From Escherichia phage vB_EcoS_fTaEco01: a stretch of DNA of 41,273 bases. The translations under genes were made by a program, and so were the position numbers. The notes beneath the pieces are model-generated. The model was not told where the DNA came from. It made no database searches and saw only the letters and a list, made by a program, of their open reading frames with translations. Shown one piece after another: positions 9,030-36,209 of the stretch; positions within the stretch are counted from its first letter, which is position 1; each line of letters opens with the position of its first letter. The DNA is taken from sequence record MT711527.1. One strand, 5' to 3'.

Positions 9030-10196
9030 ATGGCTACAACTCCTTTTAAGGGCGCGAATACTGCGCAATTCTATGTGGCAGAAACTACCCCTGGCGTAAC
9101 ACCGACTAACCCGGTCTGGTCGCCATTGCGTAACACAGGTGGCGTTCCTGCCATTACCCGCGACACGCTGACCTCCAACGAACTGGACGGCAGCCGTGAA
9201 ACTACATCCATCCGCACCGGTAACAAACAGGTTAGCGGTGAATACGCGATCGAGCTTAGCTCGAAAAGCCAGGATGACTGGCTGGCTGGTGCTTTAGGCT
9301 CTACGTGGCAATCCGGTAGTTCTCTGACCGGGCTATCAATTACCGTCGCGCCTGCAGACAAGACCTTTACCCGTGCCGAAGGTAGCTTTATTTCTGACGG
9401 CGTTGAAGTGGGCGACCTGATTGCGTTTACCGACTTAACCGGTGACAACGCAAAACCGTTTATCGTAACTGCAGTAGAGGCGCTGGTAGTGACCGGGGCG
9501 GGTATCCAGCATACCCTGACCACAGAGACAGTAACTACCGCCGCTAAGACAGGGGATAAACTGGAAACGGGAAGCCAGTGCAAGACGTTCTCTATTCTCA
9601 CCTGGTACAAAGGCCAGTGCGGCGGGACTGACGCGTACACACTAACCAAAGGCGTGGAAGTTTCTGGTTTTACCATCGAACAGGCTGTTAACGCTATGGT
9701 AACTGGCAGCTTCCCGTTCATCGGTCGCAGTCAGGAGATTCTCACCACGCAGCCGTCTGGTTCTGATTTCTCCTCTGTTACGTTTGGTGACGAGCCATTC
9801 TCCTCGGTCGATGTTTCTGTGTTCGACGGTTCTACGCCGTTGCGTTGCGACAGCCTGACCATCACCAACGACAACAGCGCGTCCGCACAGTTCGAACTCG
9901 GCAACACTAACGTAGCGTTTGTGGAGCGTAGCCGAGCAGCTAACACCTTCTCCATCTCCGGTAAGCTGTACGACATGGCGATGATTCAGAAGTTTATCAA
10001 CGAGCAGCAGGTGGAGATTAACTCTATTCTGGCTGGGGTAAACGGGGCTATGTCTTTCAGTTTGAAACGTGCAGAACTTACGGCGGTTACACCTGAGATT
10101 GGAGGACCTGAGTCAATCACTCAGTCTATTGAAGGCCAGGCTACTGGCAACCAGTACCAGTCGTCTATTGTTATTCAGCGTATCACATACGCATAA
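9030..10196 (+). CDS. major tail protein (positional)
   Basis: About 389 aa, Thr/Ser/Gly-rich; AGAGG RBS before ATG 9030; followed by a strong terminator. Confidence 0.5.
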   Translation: MATTPFKGANTAQFYVAETTPGVTPTNPVWSPLRNTGGVPAITRDTLTSNELDGSRETTSIRTGNKQVSGEYAIELSSKSQDDWLAGALGSTWQSGSSLTGLSITVAPADKTFTRAEGSFISDGVEVGDLIAFTDLTGDNAKPFIVTAVEALVVTGAGIQHTLTTETVTTAAKTGDKLETGSQCKTFSILTWYKGQCGGTDAYTLTKGVEVSGFTIEQAVNAMVTGSFPFIGRSQEILTTQPSGSDFSSVTFGDEPFSSVDVSVFDGSTPLRCDSLTITNDNSASAQFELGNTNVAFVERSRAANTFSISGKLYDMAMIQKFINEQQVEINSILAGVNGAMSFSLKRAELTAVTPEIGGPESITQSIEGQATGNQYQSSIVIQRITYA

Positions 10197-10200
10197 AACT

Positions 10201-10226
10201 AAGGCCCCGTTTGGGGCCTTTTTCTT
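10201..10226. terminator. bidirectional rho-independent terminator between convergent genes
   Basis: AAGGCCCC-GTTT-GGGGCCTT hairpin flanked by A-run and T-run; nearly identical to the terminator at 22727-22750. Confidence 0.65.
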
Positions 10227-10779
10227 ACAAACCTAATCTTAAAGCAATGCCTATAGCGTTCGATTTAACGTAACCCGGTATGATGTAGGTGTCATAATCT
10301 TTTACACCATCAATATCGTACAGGTAACCGCGGCTGTCCCCTTCAAACGTATGGCCGTCTCTGTGCAAGCGGACGATTCTCACATCATGCCCCGCGGCAA
10401 CGATAGGGGCTACTTCGCTGGCGAACCCGCCATCAGACACCACAAAAACTTCGTCGCCGTCGGGCAAGTTTCCGGCAAGATACTTACCGAAATAATCATC
10501 ACCGAATACCGGTTTAATGAATTGCTCGGAAATGGCAATCATGAACTGACGCCGAGACAACCCGTTAAGGAAACCCTCTGGCTTTTCTTTCCGCGCCCGG
10601 TCGTCGTAGCCGTCGAGAAACTCGCGGTAAGCATCCTGGCCTAACGCAGCCATAGCAATATTGAACATCGGATTCTTGAAACTGGCGACACCCTTCGCAA
10701 AGCCCATTTCTACCAGCGCCCTAGCAAGTGTGTCTTTCCCGCAGCCCGCAGGACCATTAAGAATAATTACCTTAGCCAT
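10225..10779 (-). CDS. P-loop kinase (polynucleotide 5'-kinase-like or dNMP-kinase-like)
   Basis: Walker A GPAGCGKDT at residues 8-16; N-terminus (KVIILNGPAGCGKDTLARAL) resembles the T4 Pnk kinase P-loop region as recalled from memory; 1-nt overlap with upstream phosphatase gene. Confidence 0.55.
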   Translation of the reverse strand: MAKVIILNGPAGCGKDTLARALVEMGFAKGVASFKNPMFNIAMAALGQDAYREFLDGYDDRARKEKPEGFLNGLSRRQFMIAISEQFIKPVFGDDYFGKYLAGNLPDGDEVFVVSDGGFASEVAPIVAAGHDVRIVRLHRDGHTFEGDSRGYLYDIDGVKDYDTYIIPGYVKSNAIGIALRLGL

Positions 10780-11264
10780 TATTTATCACTCCCATGTGGT
10801 TTTAAGTGTGTAGAGTTCCCGTTACAGTCGTATTCAGTAACTGCGTGAGTGGTTATGCCGAGTTCGCGGAAATGCTTTATTACCGCTGGAGAGTCGTCGA
10901 ATGCACACAAGATTCTCTCCGGCCCAATAGCACGCAACACCTCTTCTTTAATTACGATGTCTTTTCTGTTGTCGTGTTTGCTGCGCATGATTAACTGATA
11001 AAATTCGACGCGGTGGCGCTGCAACCACATTCTGGTTTCTTTTTCCGCGTCATCACTACGGCCTGTTAAGATAATAACGGCATAGCGACGATTAAGGGCG
11101 TTACACAGTTCGATGTTATCTTTAATGGGTGCATCGTCTTTGCACGCCATGTTAAATGGTTTCCACGCCCAGGTTTCGCCGTAGTTATCTTTCGGCAGCA
11201 GGTGTAAACGATGAGTACCATCTGCCAATGTCCCGTCTAAATCGAAAATCACAATATCTTTCAT
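10779..11264 (-). CDS. HAD-family phosphatase resembling the 3'-phosphatase domain of T4 polynucleotide kinase-phosphatase
   Basis: DxDGT motif (IVIFDLDGTLA), VIILTGRS, RKDIVIKEEV and FDDS segments that track the order of T4 Pnkp phosphatase motifs as recalled from memory. Confidence 0.65.
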   Translation of the reverse strand: MKDIVIFDLDGTLADGTHRLHLLPKDNYGETWAWKPFNMACKDDAPIKDNIELCNALNRRYAVIILTGRSDDAEKETRMWLQRHRVEFYQLIMRSKHDNRKDIVIKEEVLRAIGPERILCAFDDSPAVIKHFRELGITTHAVTEYDCNGNSTHLKPHGSDK

Positions 11265-12391
11265 CCAAGCATCTCCGGTGAAATAGTTAAACGTGCGACC
11301 TCGCCATATTCGGCGCTATAAGTAATTACGTTTGCACTGCGGCCCGACATCCACCCACCGCGGGAGGCATATGCATCTTTAGCCGCGAGAGTGCGGTGTT
11401 GCTCAACAATCATGTTACGGCTTTCTACAATCTTTTGGTGGTGCAGGTGACCCACGTGGGCGTAGCTGTAAACACTCTCGCCGAACGCTTTGCGGAACTT
11501 GGCAATCATAACCGGTTCGATAGCGTCGAATCGTGCTTTATGCCCATGATGGAAGAACAGCGTCGTTTTGCCGTGTTGCACCATCTTGTAAACATCCGGC
11601 GACGTATCGACGAACACACGCGGTTCATTGTCGTACAGCGTACTAAACATCTCAGCTAACCAAATCATTCCGCTTTCGTCGTGGTTACCTTGCACGATAA
11701 GCAAGCGAACATTTTTATGTTTAACGAGAGCCATATCAATGACACGGCGGACCATACGAATCATGTAGCGTACAAGTTTCTGATAGCGGGTGTCAGCGTC
11801 AAGAACATGACCACTGGCAGGTGTAACGGCGTCCAGACTATCGAAATGCGCAAGGTCGCCCAGCAGATTAATAACTCCTGTTCCGGCATCCGGTGCTTTC
11901 TGGAACGCTGCGTCGAACCAGCGGGAGAACAGGTCTTCCGCAATCTTCATGTCCCAGTCGTCGCCGCTCTCGTCAGCCCAGGCCAGCATACCGAGATGGA
12001 AATCAGACACAGTGTAAAGGTTGAGTAGCTTGTCGTCTCGTTTGGCGCGAACGGCTTTAACAGGTGCAACTGGTGTAATCTCCGACTTCATGCCTTCGAT
12101 TACGGCTTTCATCAATTCAACCTGACGTTCGGCATCGGTGTCGGTCTTAACCCATTGCAACTTGGTGTTGCCAAACTCATCCACAAGTGACGACGTCCCT
12201 TTAATCTTGTAGCCGTCCGGCACAAGGTGGCTAACGTCACGCCCGTGGCCTACGCCTTTCTTCGCAAGTTTCGCTTTACGGATACGAATAACGCGGTCTG
12301 AGATGCCGTATTTACGGGCGATGTCGATATTCTTCATACCGGCGTTCAATTCTTCCTGTAACTGTTCGTCGGTTATTTTCTTCCTGGCCAT
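11261..12391 (-). CDS. calcineurin-like metallophosphoesterase with N-terminal helix-turn-helix domain
   Basis: Metallophosphoesterase motifs in order: SDFH, GDLAHFD, GNHD, HHGH, GHLHH; basic HTH-like N-terminus; GAGGA RBS. Confidence 0.7.
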   Translation of the reverse strand: MARKKITDEQLQEELNAGMKNIDIARKYGISDRVIRIRKAKLAKKGVGHGRDVSHLVPDGYKIKGTSSLVDEFGNTKLQWVKTDTDAERQVELMKAVIEGMKSEITPVAPVKAVRAKRDDKLLNLYTVSDFHLGMLAWADESGDDWDMKIAEDLFSRWFDAAFQKAPDAGTGVINLLGDLAHFDSLDAVTPASGHVLDADTRYQKLVRYMIRMVRRVIDMALVKHKNVRLLIVQGNHDESGMIWLAEMFSTLYDNEPRVFVDTSPDVYKMVQHGKTTLFFHHGHKARFDAIEPVMIAKFRKAFGESVYSYAHVGHLHHQKIVESRNMIVEQHRTLAAKDAYASRGGWMSGRSANVITYSAEYGEVARLTISPEMLG

Positions 12392-12428
12392 GCTTATTCC
12401 TCGTGTTTAGGATTTGTCCTATACTAGC

Positions 12429-12635
12429 TCACTTCTCTTTGACATTCGAGTTGCACGCCCAGATTAAGATAAATACCCACGGCAGCAGAACCCAACCAAG
12501 AAACAGATTAGCCATGAATATCGCTAACTTCGCTTTATGGTTACGGAAGTACGCAACCAGGAAAGGCGCGAAATAAGCGAGCAGTGCAAACAGAATTAAG
12601 GAAACTGGTAAACTTGACATTTTAAACCCCTTCAT
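12429..12635 (-). CDS. superinfection immunity-like small membrane protein (Imm-family)
   Basis: 68 aa, two hydrophobic helices; pattern AYFAPF..AYFRNH...AIF.ANLFLGW....W.F.LIWA matches the conserved core of superinfection-immunity family proteins (from memory). Confidence 0.65.
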   Translation of the reverse strand: MKGFKMSSLPVSLILFALLAYFAPFLVAYFRNHKAKLAIFMANLFLGWVLLPWVFILIWACNSNVKEK

Positions 12636-12650
12636 TGTTGGTGTAAGTGA

Positions 12651-12679
12651 ATAGTACCCTATTATATTGGGGTGTGCAA
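12651..12679 (-). promoter_or_regulatory. promoter (TTGCAC-17 nt-TACTAT) for the minus-strand accessory cassette
   Basis: Reverse complement gives TTGCAC-ACCCCAATATAATAGGG-TACTAT; nearly identical to plus-strand promoters at 34888-34916 and 36181-36209. Confidence 0.5.
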
Positions 12680-12787
12680 GTAATGTGATAGAATAAGTTT
12701 GCGCCTAGTGTCGCACACGAAAAGCGGGTGGTTCCCGTCTGGCGCATTTATCGTTAACCTGTAACCTCTTAACCAAAGGATTAAAGA

Positions 12788-13204
12788 ATGAAACTTTCTG
12801 ATTTTTATTTCGAAGAGAAAGCACTGGTAGGCAAGAAGATGCCCATTCTGCTGCCAAACGGCGAAGACTCCGGTGAATGGCTTAACGTTGTAAGTCCCGA
12901 TGCGGATGTCGCCGTTAAAGCGGGGCGTGCTTTCATTATTGCGTACCGTCGCGGGTTGGCGCGTTTCGAAGAACTGGAAAAAGCCGCCAAAGAATCCGGC
13001 GACTATACTGAATATAACCTGGCTATTAACGAACTGGCGGAAGACCTCAACCGGCAACTCGCGGCAGAAGTCGTAAACGGCTGGAGCTTTGATGAGCCTT
13101 TCTCTAAAGAAGCATTTAACAAATTGCTGGACCAGTTCAAGGCATTAGGCACACAGGTAGCAGCGTTCCATAACGCTGAGCGCAAAGCATTACAGGAAAA
13201 GTAG
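12788..13204 (+). CDS. tail assembly chaperone (G-like)
   Basis: 138-aa acidic ORF directly upstream of the tape measure gene; AAGGA RBS. Confidence 0.5.
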   Translation: MKLSDFYFEEKALVGKKMPILLPNGEDSGEWLNVVSPDADVAVKAGRAFIIAYRRGLARFEELEKAAKESGDYTEYNLAINELAEDLNRQLAAEVVNGWSFDEPFSKEAFNKLLDQFKALGTQVAAFHNAERKALQEK

Positions 13205-13569
13205 ACGCGCTGTACAGGTTCGCCACCTATGAGTTTGTGGATAAGCATAAAATCAGAGAGTTTGATTCTATAGCCGACGGACACGAACAGGCGCTTATCG
13301 CGATGGGTGTAATCGATAAGAAAAAACGTGCAGCGCGACGGGGTGGGCCAGAATGCCCGCCCCTTTTTATATCCACCTTCGAGACGTACTGCGACATTAA
13401 GTTTACGCGACACGTGCGCGAGGACGCTGTAGTATTGTTCGCAAGAGAATCCGTTACGTGGCAAGACCTGAAAGCCTATCTCGATGTTACGCAAAAACAG
13501 CTTAGCCTGTTCGAGATAGACATTATCATGGGCTTAGAAGCAATCTTTGAAGGTAGAAATCATGGCTGA
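13180..13569 (+). CDS. tail assembly chaperone extension (GT-like), probably expressed by -1 frameshift from 12788-13204
   Basis: Frame -1 relative to the upstream ORF is open from 13180; no ATG or RBS of its own (ORF track uses GTG 13237); slippery-like G_GAA_AAG at 13195-13201; ends overlapping tape measure start. Confidence 0.4.
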   Translation, partial: AQSITGKVDALYRFATYEFVDKHKIREFDSIADGHEQALIAMGVIDKKKRAARRGGPECPPLFISTFETYCDIKFTRHVREDAVVLFARESVTWQDLKAYLDVTQKQLSLFEIDIIMGLEAIFEGRNHG

Positions 13570-15835
13570 TACCGCTAGCTTGATCGTACGAGTATCATCG
13601 ACCGGCGTCGATAAAACCACATCACAACTGAACGGGCTTACCAAAGCCGCGGGGGCCGCCGCCGCTGCCGTTGTCAGTCTGGAAACTGCCAAACAGGTGT
13701 TCAGTGCGCTGGTGGACTCCCAGCGCAACTTCGATAAGCTGAACTCCGGCCTCATCACAATGACCGGGAGCGCCGAGAACGCTGCTAAGGCATTCAGCGT
13801 CCTGCAACAGTTCGCAAAAGAAACTCCGTATGGTCTTAACCAGGCGGTGGAAGGCTTTACTAAGCTGGTGGCCCTCGGCCTGAACCCAAGCAAAGAGGCG
13901 TTAATCTCCTACGGCAACACCGCGGCGGCTATGGGTAAAGACCTTAATCAGATGATTGAGGCGGTTGCCGACGCCAGTACCTTTGAGTTTGAGCGACTGA
14001 AAGAGTTCGGCATCAAGTCGTCGCAACAGGCGGATACAGTTTCGTTCACGTTCCGTGGCGTAACGACCACGGTTAAGAAGAACTCCGAAGAGATTCAGAA
14101 ATACCTCCTGAATATCGGCAACACCGATTTTGCCGGGGCGATGGAGACGCGCTCTAAGACGCTAGACGGCCAGTTATCGAGCCTCGCCGACTCCTTCGAT
14201 GGTCTTGTTCTTGCGGTGGCGCAGTCTGGTTTTGGCGACGCCGTAGGTGAGCAAGCGGCCACAGCGGAACACGCTATCACGGCGCTTACCGACGCCATCG
14301 CGTCTAATGAGATAGCCGCCACGCTCCAGGATTGGGTGGCGCTGTTCAATGAGTCATTCAAGTTTATTTCCGACGCCCTGAATGACCTGGCATTCGATAC
14401 CGAGGACAAATCCGTTGATATGTCTGACTCGCTGGGGACTATACCGGATGCCATCCGTGAGTGGTTGCCGGATATCCAGCAGACATTCCACGAGGTTATT
14501 GCGTGGTTCCAGCGCATTGACGACTACGCGGTAGCGTTAGGCCAGACCCTTGCTGATGTGTTTGACCCGAGCAAAACGGCAGCGCTCACATTTAAAAACC
14601 TGACCGCAGAGGCTGACGCCGCATACGCCGCCAGCATAAAACGCGCAGCGGCGGAATCCCAGGCCATTACCGACAGGTCTAAGCAGCGTAAGAAAGAAAT
14701 TGAGGAACAGCGCAAGCAGTATGACGAGCGCAAGAAGCAAGAAATTGACTTAGCCAGCCTTGTTAATAAAAAGGGTGGAACTGGCGGCACCGGAAACGCC
14801 GACGATAAAGCGGCAAAAGCAGCCGCTAAGAAAGCTGAGCAGTTGCGGAATCAGGCGCAAGACTACCTCGACACTTTGGCCCGTCAGAACAACGACGAGT
14901 TAAAGGCTATTGACGCGCAGGAACAGCAGAAACTGGCTAAAGCAAAAGAGTTCTACAGCCAGGGTGCGTTGTCTCTGAAAGAATACGAACAAGCTAAAAC
15001 AGCTATCGTCCTCGAAGCCGGACAAAAACGACAAGATGAACTGGATAAACGCCAGAAAGAAGCCCAGGAAAAGCAACAGAAAGGCGACGACTTCATGGCT
15101 CAGATTATGGGCCAGAACGCTACTGAGCTTGAGCTTCTCGACATCCAGGAACAGCAGAAACTGGCGGTAGCCGATAAGTACCGTGAACAGGGTCTGATTA
15201 GCGAGAAGCAGTATCAGGCCGCGCTTAACGCCATCAACGAGCAGTATGCTATGAAGCGCGCCGACGCAACGGCGACCGCCTTTGGTAATATGGCCTCAAA
15301 CATTGGGTCTGCGTTGGGCGAGGCTTCAGGTGCGTATAAGGCATTCGCTATCGTACAGGCCACTATAGCCACGTACACCGCAGCTATTGAAGCGTATAAG
15401 TCAACGGCTGCTATCCCTGTAGTCGGCCCGTTCCTGGCTCCTGTAGCTGCCGCCGCTGCCGTTGGGGCAGGTATGGCGCAGATTTCCGCTATCAGGTCCG
15501 CGCGTGAACAGGGGGGACAGTTATCCGCAGGGCAGGCATCCACCATCGCAGAACGCGGTAAACCAGAAGTCATCATGCCTGCTGGCGCATCTCGTGTTCG
15601 CACCGCGCAGCAGATGAAAGAAATTATGGGGCAAAACGGGTCTTCTTCCGGACCGTCTAATGTTACCATCGTAAACAACACGAGTTCTCAGATTGGCAAC
15701 GTATCCACTGAACAAGATGATGAAGGCCGTTTGCGTATCATCATTGAAGAGCAAGTGGCGGCCTCTTTGCAGAACAGCAACAGTAAGATTAGCAAGGCCC
15801 GCAAGGCCACAAGAAACGCGCCGGGGTTCAAATAA
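13562..15835 (+). CDS. tail tape measure protein
   Basis: About 757 aa, Ala/Gln/Lys-rich with long coiled-coil-like segments; follows the chaperone pair. Confidence 0.75.
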   Translation: MADTASLIVRVSSTGVDKTTSQLNGLTKAAGAAAAAVVSLETAKQVFSALVDSQRNFDKLNSGLITMTGSAENAAKAFSVLQQFAKETPYGLNQAVEGFTKLVALGLNPSKEALISYGNTAAAMGKDLNQMIEAVADASTFEFERLKEFGIKSSQQADTVSFTFRGVTTTVKKNSEEIQKYLLNIGNTDFAGAMETRSKTLDGQLSSLADSFDGLVLAVAQSGFGDAVGEQAATAEHAITALTDAIASNEIAATLQDWVALFNESFKFISDALNDLAFDTEDKSVDMSDSLGTIPDAIREWLPDIQQTFHEVIAWFQRIDDYAVALGQTLADVFDPSKTAALTFKNLTAEADAAYAASIKRAAAESQAITDRSKQRKKEIEEQRKQYDERKKQEIDLASLVNKKGGTGGTGNADDKAAKAAAKKAEQLRNQAQDYLDTLARQNNDELKAIDAQEQQKLAKAKEFYSQGALSLKEYEQAKTAIVLEAGQKRQDELDKRQKEAQEKQQKGDDFMAQIMGQNATELELLDIQEQQKLAVADKYREQGLISEKQYQAALNAINEQYAMKRADATATAFGNMASNIGSALGEASGAYKAFAIVQATIATYTAAIEAYKSTAAIPVVGPFLAPVAAAAAVGAGMAQISAIRSAREQGGQLSAGQASTIAERGKPEVIMPAGASRVRTAQQMKEIMGQNGSSSGPSNVTIVNNTSSQIGNVSTEQDDEGRLRIIIEEQVAASLQNSNSKISKARKATRNAPGFK

Positions 15836-22888: not shown

Positions 22889-24309
22889 TTCTTACCTCGT
22901 CTCTTCATGTAATTAAGCAACTCTTCCTGGACCGATTTCTTCTCGTCAGTACGCGAGGCAACAACCTCGTCCAGCGTGTCTTTAGCAACGATGTGATAGA
23001 GGAACACTGGTCGCTCATGGCCCGCCTGCTTCTGGCGCACCGGGCCTATACGCTCGACAACCTGCAAATAGTGCTCAAGGTTCCAGCCTTGCGAAATAAA
23101 CGCCAGATGATGTCCGCCGTCCTGTAAATTCAAACCATGGCCGGCTGACGCGGGGTGAACGCACAAAATCTCGATTTCACCCCGATTCCACGCTTCCATC
23201 TGCTTATTACCTTTCGCACCTTTGGCAAACGCCTGCGCCTGTGGGAATCGCTTAAGGATGCGCTCCAGTTCGTGCTTGAACTGATAAGCCACAAGTAACG
23301 GTGCGCCCTGTAGCTCCTCAACAATCGACTCAAGCGCGTCCAGTTTCGTATCGTGTACTTTCTCCCAGTCTTTGGTTGCCTCACCGTCTGGCCCCGACAC
23401 ATATACGGCACCGGAGGCAATCTGCAAACACTTTGACGTCTTCGCCGCCGCGTTAGCCGCTTCAACTTCTCCGCTCTCCAGTTCCGCGAATAACTTCTCC
23501 TCCATATCTAGGTACGCCTGACGTGCCTTCTTCGGCAGGTCGATTTCAACCGGCACTATAATAGGTGCTTCACACCCAAACCACTCAGCGGCGTCAATAG
23601 TGAGACTAATGTCCTTCATCTTCTGGTGGATCTCATTATCTGCACCAGGACGCGCATGATACTCCCGCGCCATCGCCGACTTACCTTTCTGTACCGAGTT
23701 AAACCATCGGTCGGTGAATGCCGTATATGAGGACCCCAGGCGCTCGCCGGCGTCGATAAACCAGTTCTGACCCCACAGGTCCTTGAGGCCGTTTGGTGAG
23801 GGCGTGCCGGTAAGGTTTATAAAACGCTTAACCTTTCCAAACGCCACCTTACTGAGCGCCTTTGCCCGCTTGCTACCACCTGAACGGCTGCGGAATGATT
23901 TCAGCTTCGTGCTTTCGTCGGCGACGATAACGGTAAAAGGCCAGTCGTCTTTGCCGTAGTAGTCAATCAGCCATTCGATAACTTCGTAGTTTGTACACAC
24001 CACGTTAGCGTCTGATTCCAGCGCCGCGATGCGGCGCTTCTCTGAACCTGTCGCGTCTACGACACGCAGACATGGGAAATTCCATTTCTCTTGCTCTGCC
24101 GGCCATGTGCCGGACGCAACACGTAAAGGAGCCAGAATTAACACGCGGTCGTCGTCCGTAAGTTGCCCGTTGCGGAACAGGCGGTTTAAAGTCCACAGGA
24201 CGCTGCCAGTCTTCCCGGCGCCCATGCTCGCCCAAATATTACAGCGATGGTGCTGCAACATGAACGAGGTCATGAGCTTCTGGTATTCGCGCCTTTGAAA
24301 CTTACTCAT
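22885..24309 (-). CDS. superfamily-2 DNA helicase (SNF2/DEAD-like)
   Basis: Walker A SMGAGKTG, motif II VADEST, C-terminal helicase-domain-like region. Confidence 0.7.
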   Translation of the reverse strand: MSKFQRREYQKLMTSFMLQHHRCNIWASMGAGKTGSVLWTLNRLFRNGQLTDDDRVLILAPLRVASGTWPAEQEKWNFPCLRVVDATGSEKRRIAALESDANVVCTNYEVIEWLIDYYGKDDWPFTVIVADESTKLKSFRSRSGGSKRAKALSKVAFGKVKRFINLTGTPSPNGLKDLWGQNWFIDAGERLGSSYTAFTDRWFNSVQKGKSAMAREYHARPGADNEIHQKMKDISLTIDAAEWFGCEAPIIVPVEIDLPKKARQAYLDMEEKLFAELESGEVEAANAAAKTSKCLQIASGAVYVSGPDGEATKDWEKVHDTKLDALESIVEELQGAPLLVAYQFKHELERILKRFPQAQAFAKGAKGNKQMEAWNRGEIEILCVHPASAGHGLNLQDGGHHLAFISQGWNLEHYLQVVERIGPVRQKQAGHERPVFLYHIVAKDTLDEVVASRTDEKKSVQEELLNYMKRRGKK

Positions 24310-25126
24310 TTACGGCCCCCATAAACGCCTTTATAAATTCGGCGGCTACTTGCGGGACGATGGCATTGCCGTAACCGCGCAATCGTCCCACTCTTGCGGG
24401 TATCCCATTAGCCAGCGGGAATGCGCCGGGTTCAACCGGCCGGAACTTTCCATCACGGCATCCGAGCCAGTCAGCATCTGACCAGAAGCCGTGGTGCGGG
24501 TTGGTTGACTCGCTTTCAATCCCTGCTCTGTTGAGTAGTCCAGCCTGTCGAATGTTCTGTCCCTCCCGTCCGTGCGAATCACTGTCTCTCCGCTCCCTCT
24601 GAAGTCGTTCGCACACGGTGTTGGCCAGTTGCTGCGCTCCGAAGAACAATCGATTCCTTTTGTGCGGTGCGCCGACGCTACAAGCTGGGAGTACGGCAAA
24701 CCCGACGGCGTAGTCTTCTCTTTCCAGGTGAGTTTGTAAATCGCACATCCACGATTTTGCAATTGCTGCCGCAACCTGCTCCCCAAAGATAACTGGAGGG
24801 CGGCACTCGCTGATGAGGTCGAGGAACACAGGTGCGAGGTGTCTCTGGTCGAACTGTCCGAGTTGCTTTCCTGCCGTGCTAAACGGTTGGCAAGGCGGGC
24901 TTCCCGTCCAGAGAGGCGCATCTTCCGGAACTCCCGCAAGTCTGAGCGCGAGAGGCCAGCCGCCGATACCAGCGAAAAAATGACACTGGGTGAACCCGTC
25001 AAGGTCTTCTGGCTTAACTTCGGTAATGCTTCTTTCATCTACAACTCCAAAAGGTATGTGACCATGTTTTATTAATTCACGCAGCCACGCGGCTGCGCCT
25101 TTATCCCATTCGTTGTAATAGTTCAT
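24302..25126 (-). CDS. DNA (cytosine-5)-methyltransferase, short form
   Basis: Motif I FAGIGG, motif [11 protein letters not shown], motif VIII-like HKRNRLF, C-terminal GN; only 274 aa. Confidence 0.7.
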
Positions 25127-25314
25127 TTTGCCACCAGAACTAACTCTTTACGCCCGAACGCCGTGACGTTACCCGTTACATCTTCGATAACCAGTTTACC
25201 GTTCGACTCGACGAACACCGTATCAACGGCAACAGGCTGGCGTGTCTTAACGTTGAAAATCATGTCACCCGGTACGATGTCACGTGCTGGTTTACGGTCA
25301 TATTCGTGTTTCAT
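25123..25314 (-). CDS. hypothetical protein
   Basis: 63-aa ORF with AAGGA RBS, immediately downstream of a minus-strand promoter. Confidence 0.4.
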   Translation of the reverse strand: MKHEYDRKPARDIVPGDMIFNVKTRQPVAVDTVFVESNGKLVIEDVTGNVTAFGRKELVLVAK

Positions 25315-34887: not shown

Positions 34888-34916
34888 TTGCACACCCCAA
34901 CATAATAGGATACTAT
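34888..34916 (+). promoter_or_regulatory. promoter (TTGCAC-17 nt-TACTAT) for rightward small-gene cluster
   Basis: TTGCAC-ACCCCAACATAATAGGA-TACTAT. Confidence 0.5.
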
Positions 34917-36180: not shown

Positions 36181-36209
36181 TTGCACACTAAGATAGAATA
36201 GGCTACTAT
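36181..36209 (+). promoter_or_regulatory. promoter (TTGCAC-17 nt-TACTAT)
   Basis: TTGCAC-ACTAAGATAGAATAGGC-TACTAT. Confidence 0.45.

Follow-up and report, generated by a model that had tools for sequence, protein, structure and literature searches.

Four genes on the minus strand break into the plus-strand tail module of Escherichia phage vB_EcoS_fTaEco01 (MT711527.1), and this locus raises the question of what three adjacent enzymes, encoded behind a putative immunity gene, do for the phage. The window (the whole stretch of DNA analyzed here, 41,273 bp) is essentially an entire Kagunavirus-type genome. In order of predicted transcription, the cassette encodes a small hydrophobic protein of the Imm superinfection immunity type, a metallophosphoesterase (MPE) with a helix-turn-helix (HTH) domain, a standalone HAD phosphatase, and a P-loop kinase. 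An earlier note, made from the sequence alone, had taken the three enzymes for a split version of the T4 polynucleotide-end-healing enzyme Pnkp that would counter RNA- or tRNA-cleaving host defenses, and had named nucleotide metabolism as the main alternative. Profile, alignment, and structure comparisons favored this alternative, which fits the assignment of the kinase to the deoxynucleoside monophosphate (dNMP) kinases. With moderate confidence, we read the cassette as a DNA-processing and nucleotide-supply operon to which a separate exclusion moron has been added.

Public annotation already covers this cassette, including which genes it contains and where it lies. The region from 10000 to 12900 is 99.4% identical in nucleotide sequence to Escherichia phage vB_EcoS_fKuEco01 (Guernseyvirinae, Kagunavirus; MT711525), in which KE1_017-020 are annotated as a putative deoxynucleotide kinase, a putative polynucleotide kinase/phosphatase, a metallophosphoesterase, and a superinfection immunity protein; the metallophosphoesterase entry also mentions a resemblance to the small subunit of PolD. 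A homologous block of T1-like phages has also been published with the same functional guess (PMC13164509). What is new here is mainly negative, namely, that the kinase does not resemble that of Pnkp and that the MPE does not resemble that of Clostridium thermocellum Pnkp (CthPnkp); a promoter family and a variable first gene slot are minor additions. No biochemical characterization of the three enzyme families in Guernseyvirinae or Drexlerviridae was found in the literature.

Relationships of the three enzymes

The kinase had been likened to the N-terminal kinase domain of T4 Pnkp. It matched PHROG 139 ("deoxynucleoside monophosphate kinase") at 3.8e-46, and Pfam recognized the P-loop alone. 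Sequence and profile searches of the PDB were uninformative, with P-loop matches to AAA+ ATPases only, and profile-profile and structure comparisons were needed. Using hhalign, the kinase family was aligned end to end with the T4 gp1 dNMP kinase (171 columns, 81% probability) and with the N-terminus of T5 Dnk (95% probability), but the alignment with T4 Pnkp, for which the query sequence was checked and is identical to PDB 1LTQ, covered only 28 columns around the P-loop. The top-ranked Foldseek match in the PDB for an AlphaFold (AF2) model of the kinase (mean confidence score, pLDDT, 94.3) was the T4 dNMP kinase 1DEK, with a TM score of 0.66, followed by gluconate, shikimate, adenylate, and phosphomevalonate kinases; no Pnkp was present among the top 50 matches. 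The likeness to the Pnkp kinase was thus limited to the Walker A loop.

The residues of the family gave a similar picture. The kinase has the Walker A sequence GPAGCGKDT and invariant SDGGFxxE and GDSR motifs, and N8, G14, K15, D16, K35, K64, R77, S84, E85, K89, D116, G118, F119, E122, D148, and R150 were invariant in an alignment of 53 sequences. Asp35 and Arg38 are the acceptor-site residues that define a polynucleotide kinase (PMC2831316); this pair has no counterpart in the family alignment, in which the position 20 residues beyond the P-loop Lys is occupied by an invariant Lys and not by Asp. With T4 gp1 and T5 Dnk, the window kinase shares the fold, a G-x-GKDT Walker A motif, and a D-x-x-F/x-x-x-E motif, and with T5 Dnk it also shares an N-terminal "SF-K-P" region. 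It is shorter than either (184 amino acids versus 241 for gp1 and 250 for Dnk), the similarity is detectable at the profile level only, and the Arg of the D-x-R-x-x-x-E signature is an invariant Gly, even though GKDT, Asp116, and Glu122 are all invariant. On sequence and model, the kinase therefore looks like a member of the T4 gp1/T5 Dnk group of dNMP kinases and not like an RNA repair kinase.

A different result was obtained for the HAD protein, for which the proposed resemblance to the 3'-phosphatase domain of T4 Pnkp was borne out. PF25109 (HAD_PNKP) matched above the cut-off at 6.7e-20 and PHROG 415 at 8e-67, and the best PDB sequence matches were Pnkp1 (4xrp) and T4 Pnkp (5uj0/1ltq). The hhalign alignment spanned the whole phosphatase domain of T4 Pnkp (pseT; residues 159 to 298) with 98% probability and an E value of 1e-13. 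Equivalents of T4 D165, D167, R176, S211, R213, D254, K258, D277, and D278 were all present and nearly invariant among 35 homologues, so that the catalytic set is complete; roles in catalysis have been described for Asp165, Asp167, Ser211, Lys258, and Asp278 (PMC3592404). The T4 phosphatase also hydrolyzes 3'-dNMPs, at 24 per second (PMC3592404), and hence a nucleotide-level role has a precedent in this clade. Since the T4 HAD domain alone removes 2',3'-cyclic phosphates (PMC3592404), a separate MPE would not be needed for that job.

A second relative of the HAD protein was the T5 5'-deoxyribonucleotidase Dmp (244 amino acids), with a probability of 93% over the N-terminal 81 columns only. The two proteins have in common a DLDGT...HR motif, an N-x-AC-x-D insert, and a T-x-R motif, and the insert after motif I is longer than that of T4 Pnkp and more like that of Dmp; there is no detectable similarity in the C-terminal half. 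The T5 Dmp family PF26880 gave weak or faint matches to T1-like HAD homologues and did not appear among the local Pfam matches of the window protein. Overall, the T4 Pnkp phosphatase is a closer relative than Dmp. The fold family of the HAD protein is clear, and polynucleotide 3' ends, 3'-dNMPs, or 5'-dNMPs could all be its substrates. The earlier note had specified that clustering of the kinase with dNMP kinases and of the HAD protein with nucleotidases would count against end healing; the former was observed, but the HAD protein resembles a classical nucleotidase less than it does the Pnkp phosphatase.

T4 Pnkp is a single polypeptide, whereas in the window there are two open reading frames (ORFs), phosphatase and then kinase, with a kinase of another type than Pnk and with no partner RNA ligase. 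Homologues of the HAD protein occur in 2,994 phage records. No HAD-kinase fusion was detected among the 120 nearest relatives, all of which were standalone proteins of 101 to 237 amino acids. The public label "polynucleotide kinase" for the HAD gene is a misnomer, and it misleads because the protein has no kinase domain.

The proposed fusion of an HTH to the metallophosphoesterase was borne out. A LuxR/GerE-like HTH (residues ~8 to 44) is joined by a linker consisting of a beta-hairpin and a helix to a C-terminal dinuclear metallophosphoesterase domain (~119 to 376); in the predicted structure (pLDDT, 93.1) the N-terminus forms a three-helix HTH resembling those of GerE, LuxR, and FixJ. Pfam matches to the Metallophos and GerE-type HTH families were weak. 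All of the MPE motifs (DxH, GD, GNH[D/E], H, and GHxH) were found, with D130, H132, G178, D179, N236, H237, H282, G314, and H317 invariant and H315 nearly invariant among 65 homologues. The protein matched PHROG 704 ("DNA repair exonuclease") at 1.3e-167, and its family comprises 4,636 representative clusters, with a typical length of 380 to 400 amino acids.

Comparison of the MPE with the PDB by sequence detected only HTH matches and marginal Mre11/MPE matches. Its nearest solved structures were the DNA nucleases PolD-DP1, SbcD, and Mre11. In bacterial Pnkp/Hen1 systems, CthPnkp combines a kinase, a metallophosphoesterase, and a ligase, and the window likewise has a P-loop kinase and a dinuclear MPE. 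The phosphatase of CthPnkp is placed in the lambda-phosphatase branch (PMC2190708), whereas the window MPE groups with Mre11, SbcD, and DP1 and is accompanied by neither a ligase domain nor Hen1. A search of the MPE for profile similarity to NinI/lambda-type phosphatases was negative. The MPE therefore looks, from sequence and model, like a DNA nuclease and not like the cyclic-phosphodiesterase module of a bacterial Pnkp. No Rad50/SbcC ATPase or PolD DP2 partner was found in the genome annotation. For the four cassette proteins, NCBIfam returned nothing above the cut-off.

Distribution of the enzyme genes among phages

The conservation of the block was examined at 87 loci carrying a kinase homologue. 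The complete MPE-HAD-kinase arrangement was present at 27, HAD and kinase only at 14, and MPE and kinase at 1; at the remaining 45 loci the kinase was alone. In the T1-like phages (Drexlerviridae), the block has the same order and orientation, with identities to the window proteins of 42% for the MPE, ~50% for the HAD protein, and ~42% for the kinase. The T1-like block differs in lacking an Imm-like gene and in its location, which is not the tail module but the end of the replication module (helicase, VRR-NUC, and Dam), just upstream of the lysis cassette. A "DNA repair exonuclease" was reported in 2026 to be persistent in 508 of 522 Drexlerviridae, often followed by a "polynucleotide kinase" and a dNMP kinase, and nucleotide supply was proposed as the role (PMC13164509).

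Among the Guernseyvirinae loci compared (L008 to L023), the MPE was the most conserved of the enzymes, with identities of 94.7 to 99.5% versus 84.5 to 100% for the HAD protein and 81.5 to 100% for the kinase. In two large phage groups used for phage therapy, the MPE is a core gene that hardly ever varies. Two classes of HAD allele, at ~85 to 87% and 95 to 100% identity, were present in the same set, which suggests mosaic exchange within the operon.

Other lineages retained parts of the block in other surroundings. Phages of ~70 kb have the order PolA-dCMP deaminase-kinase with ThyX nearby. A 74-kb phage (L005, 4341-8202) has the order PolA-dCMP deaminase-MPE-DUF4406-kinase, with an ATP-dependent DNA ligase two genes downstream; the place of the HAD gene is taken by DUF4406, which we take to be related to the nucleoside 2-deoxyribosyltransferase superfamily. 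In a podovirus, the HAD and kinase genes lie between those for endonuclease VII and RNA polymerase; a 351-amino-acid protein encoded upstream of the HAD gene (L006) was considered as an MPE homologue and rejected, as it had no similarity. A lone HTH-MPE homologue was found directly upstream of antiterminator Q in a lambdoid nin-like region (L090, 6001-7487), at a position where lambda presumably carries the unrelated MPE phosphatase NinI. In one T1-like phage (L093, 4585-4842), a truncated HAD gene of 85 amino acids lies between an intact MPE gene and an intact kinase gene, and the phosphatase thus appears to be dispensable in at least one lineage.

Function of the enzyme block

In the favored reading, the cassette would be an independently transcribed operon composed of two functionally separate parts. 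The first part, a swappable first gene, would specify a small inner-membrane protein of the Imm family, most likely a superinfection exclusion moron. The second would be a conserved, translationally coupled block of three enzymes belonging to the DNA replication and nucleotide metabolism repertoire and not to RNA repair. The HTH-MPE would act as an Mn/Mg-dependent DNA nuclease similar to Mre11, SbcD, and PolD-DP1; the HAD protein would remove 3'-phosphates, whether at DNA ends or on 3'-dNMPs, or would possibly trim 5'-dNMPs in the manner of T5 Dmp; and the gp1/Dnk-type kinase would convert dNMPs to deoxynucleoside diphosphates for the host Ndk. Jointly, these activities would process DNA, either that of the host chromosome or intermediates of replication and recombination, and would feed or balance the deoxynucleoside triphosphate pool. 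Both the substrates and the membership of the three enzymes in one pathway are what we infer from these relationships.

The association of the kinase with dCMP deaminase and ThyX in other phages suggests a role in the nucleotide pool and not at DNA ends; for the phosphorylation of dNMPs, this genomic neighborhood is supportive evidence only. In the window itself, no nucleotide metabolism gene was found outside the cassette, as judged from the annotation of the near-identical genome and the ORF assignments. If the favored reading is true, the block is ordinary phage housekeeping, in which a nuclease, a phosphatase, and a dNMP kinase supply replication in a small siphovirus.

Several observations weigh against this reading. 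Salvage does not obviously call for a phosphatase beside a dNMP kinase. The products of MPE nucleases carry 5'-phosphates, and a 5'-dNMPase would work against the kinase. The tight pairing of HAD and kinase genes, seen repeatedly, mirrors, by analogy, the phosphatase-plus-kinase logic of the Pnkp enzymes. The match to gp1 had an hhalign probability of only 81% and a TM score of only 0.66, and the SDGGFxxE motif of the kinase family stands in place of SDTRQDHE in T4 and TDVRFPNE in T5. The Arg that is lost is one that we take to be nucleotide binding in gp1 and Dnk, and the change to Gly may indicate a substrate other than a canonical dNMP. Finally, as the kinase is alone at 45 of the 87 loci and the MPE is alone in L090, the enzymes need not form one pathway.

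This last point leads to a rather unlikely alternative, that there is no joint pathway and that the MPE is a replication or recombination nuclease or an HTH regulator, the HAD protein and the kinase are separate tuners of the nucleotide pool, and the Imm-like gene is a hitch-hiking moron. The wide and nonidentical distributions of the three families (4,636 clusters, 2,994 records, and the lone kinases) would be expected in this case, as would the MPE beside antiterminator Q, the retention of MPE and kinase around a truncated HAD gene, and the far greater conservation of the MPE than of its partners. However, distinct phage groups have kept the MPE-HAD-kinase order, together with the overlaps of stop and start codons, at 40 to 50% protein identity, and therefore selection on the arrangement would seem to have operated.

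It is unlikely that the block guards replicating phage DNA by healing DNA ends. In such a scheme, nicks or breaks made by nucleases that generate 3'-phosphate/5'-OH ends would be treated by the HAD protein, as the 3'-phosphatase, and by the kinase, phosphorylating the 5'-OH groups; the MPE would trim damaged ends, and the host LigA would seal them. The combination of a Pnkp-type HAD protein with a nuclease-like MPE bearing a DNA-binding HTH is consistent with this scheme, as is the location of the block in replication and recombination modules elsewhere, once two genes upstream of a DNA ligase, and the host NAD-dependent ligase could carry out sealing. The kinase is the obstacle: its fold and profile are those of a gp1-type small-molecule kinase and not of a polynucleotide kinase, and its association with dCMP deaminase and ThyX favors the nucleotide pool.

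The counterdefense proposal of the earlier note, a complete kit for RNA or tRNA ends, is in our view quite improbable. It assigns the opening of 2',3'-cyclic phosphates to the MPE, the removal of 3'-phosphates to the HAD protein, and the phosphorylation of 5'-OH ends to the kinase, so that the damage caused by anticodon nucleases or other RNA-cleaving defenses would be reversed. Of these assignments, only that of the HAD protein stood: it is a true member of the Pnkp phosphatase clade with full catalytic residues, and its best PDB relatives, Pnkp1 and T4 Pnkp, are RNA repair enzymes. The tight coupling of the HAD and kinase genes in many lineages and a promoter type shared with two small-gene, presumably early, operons are also compatible with the proposal. 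On the other hand, the P-loop is all that the kinase has in common with T4 Pnkp, the Asp35/Arg38 pair is missing from it, and structure and profile searches group it with small-molecule kinases, dNMP kinases among them; the MPE does not belong to the lambda-phosphatase/CthPnkp type; and the T4 HAD domain opens cyclic phosphates with no helper. The absence of a ligase, stated in the earlier note, was confirmed for both RNA and DNA ligases, as the annotation of the near-identical complete genome includes none and all ORFs of >250 amino acids are assigned otherwise. Once ends were healed to 3'-OH/5'-phosphate, the host RtcB ligase would no longer have its substrate. A PADLOC search with the four cassette proteins gave no match.

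We give little credence to a variant in which the HAD protein and the gp1-fold kinase form a split polynucleotide end-healing enzyme, with a dNMP kinase scaffold, carrying the Arg-to-Gly change, recruited for 5'-OH ends of DNA or RNA and acting with the HTH-MPE and a host ligase against damage by nucleic acid-cleaving defenses. The cassette would be of wider interest only if such a recruitment of a dNMP kinase fold as a polynucleotide kinase in counterdefense were true. A last reading, in which the MPE is a phosphodiesterase that destroys the cyclic nucleotide signals of immune systems (CBASS, Pycsar, or type III CRISPR) and the other cassette genes have nothing to do with it, is highly improbable; in its favor, the cyclic-nucleotide phosphodiesterase Rv0805 was among the top Foldseek matches of the MPE.

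Cassette structure, first gene, and genome context

An ORF scan and the gene strands of MT711525 reproduced the set of four co-oriented minus-strand genes that breaks the plus-strand tail module (Table 1). The scan gave minus-strand ORFs of 184, 161, and 376 amino acids for the enzymes and of 68 amino acids (12429-12635) for the Imm-like gene. Overlaps of 4 nucleotides at the MPE/HAD junction and 1 nucleotide at the HAD/kinase junction are typical for translational coupling, which may thus link the three enzyme genes.

Table 1. Features of the minus-strand cassette (coordinates are those of the window)
Feature	Position	Strand	Evidence or remark
Candidate bidirectional intrinsic terminator, GC-rich hairpin	10201..10220		Between convergent tail-tube (+) and kinase (-) genes
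184-amino-acid P-loop kinase, putative T4 gp1/T5 Dnk dNMP kinase family	10225..10779	-	PHROG, hhalign, AF2/Foldseek
161-amino-acid standalone HAD (DxDxT) phosphatase, Pnkp phosphatase clade	10779..11264	-	PF25109, PHROG 415, PDB matches, hhalign
376-amino-acid HTH + MPE, putative nuclease-like branch	11261..12391	-	Domain layout, MPE motifs
63-amino-acid two-segment hydrophobic Imm_superinfect protein	12429..12620	-	PF14373; alternative start 12635 gives 68 amino acids
Promoter-like motif TTGCAC-N17-TACTAT	12651..12679	-	One of three copies

The Imm-like protein is small and has two hydrophobic segments, and it matched PF14373 (Imm_superinfect) at 9.3e-13 with 48.3 bits versus a cut-off of 27.9, as well as PHROG 1039, in agreement with its description as a superinfection immunity-like membrane protein. 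The second ATG, at 12620, is more likely to be the start than that at 12635, as it is preceded at 8 nucleotides by an AAGGGG Shine-Dalgarno sequence. The gene was present at 11 of 16 related loci. In K1H-like phages and some other Guernseyvirinae (L009 and L019; 3997-4323 in each), it was replaced behind the same promoter by a gene for a 108-amino-acid protein with a signal peptide-like N-terminus (MRKLVLALGLMSFATFGAPC...). Because of this exchange, the first slot appears to behave as a variable moron position for envelope or exclusion genes that is independent of the fixed enzyme block.

The cassette promoter had been described as being of the same type as that of a rightward small-gene cluster, and exact matches to TTGCAC-N17-TACTAT were indeed found at 12651-12679(-), 34888-34916(+), and 36181-36209(+), three copies versus 0.03 expected. 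The copies at 34.9 and 36.2 kb precede two rightward small-gene clusters. A block of ~46 nucleotides was common to the three copies (CTTGCACAC..AATAGG.TACTATTCAyTTA..AAC) and reached past the -10 element, and in each case a Shine-Dalgarno sequence and an ATG followed within ~25 to 30 nucleotides. The conservation does not stop at the -35 and -10 hexamers but continues into the bases transcribed first, which suggests a coregulated promoter family or a shared operator. The motif upstream of the cassette was kept at 13 of 16 Guernseyvirinae loci. Early transcription of the cassette is plausible from the shared promoter type; we infer both this timing and cotranscription of the genes. In a transcriptome sequencing study of a Kagunavirus with three coarse classes over 120 min, the Imm homologue was classed with the DNA polymerase genes as "late" and the enzymes were unmentioned (PMC12645636); these classes are too coarse to decide between early and late expression. 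A 41-amino-acid ORF at 12622-12747(-), annotated as a hypothetical protein in MT711525, was considered as a fifth gene and is probably spurious, given its overlap with the promoter block and its location ahead of the predicted start of transcription.

At the other end of the cassette, a hairpin at 10201-10220 is a candidate for the bidirectional terminator proposed in the earlier note. The hairpin (AAGGCCCC-GTTT-GGGGCCTT) had a terminator-like score on both strands and was far more stable than its shuffled versions, with folding energies of -15.5 and -19.1 kcal/mol (z = -3.6 and -4.4) for the plus and minus strands, respectively. The plus strand has a good T-run (TTTTCTT), and that of the minus strand (AGTTTTAT) is weaker.

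The block at 10.2 to 12.7 kb, located between the tail-tube gene (+) and the tail chaperones, is the sole antisense break in the morphogenesis module; in MT711525, all other genes from 1 to ~22.7 kb, from terminase to the endosialidase tailspike, are on the plus strand. The cassettes of Kagunavirus and Guernseyvirinae phages (fKuEco01, K1G, K1H, and K1ind1-3) have the same four genes at the same tail-tube/chaperone position with essentially no difference, and the K1-capsule phages K1G, K1H, and K1ind1-3 are 96 to 98% identical to the window in the region from 10000 to 12900, for which 202 phage records matched. A recent horizontal insertion of the cassette was considered, and no sign of one was found: the GC content (0.485 to 0.503) is slightly lower than that of the flanks, and the position is conserved across the subfamily.

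Three further features of the genome were recorded. The tail assembly chaperone pair at 12788-13569(+) has an annotated programmed frameshift product (join 12789-13570 in MT711525). The divergent promoter region between this pair and the cassette is only ~110 nucleotides long. In the DNA cytosine methyltransferase region (window ~24300-25130(-); 24303-25127 and 24347-25039 in MT711525), a second ORF annotated as a "putative methyltransferase (Mte8-like)" lies wholly within the DNA cytosine methyltransferase gene, with which it shares the strand.

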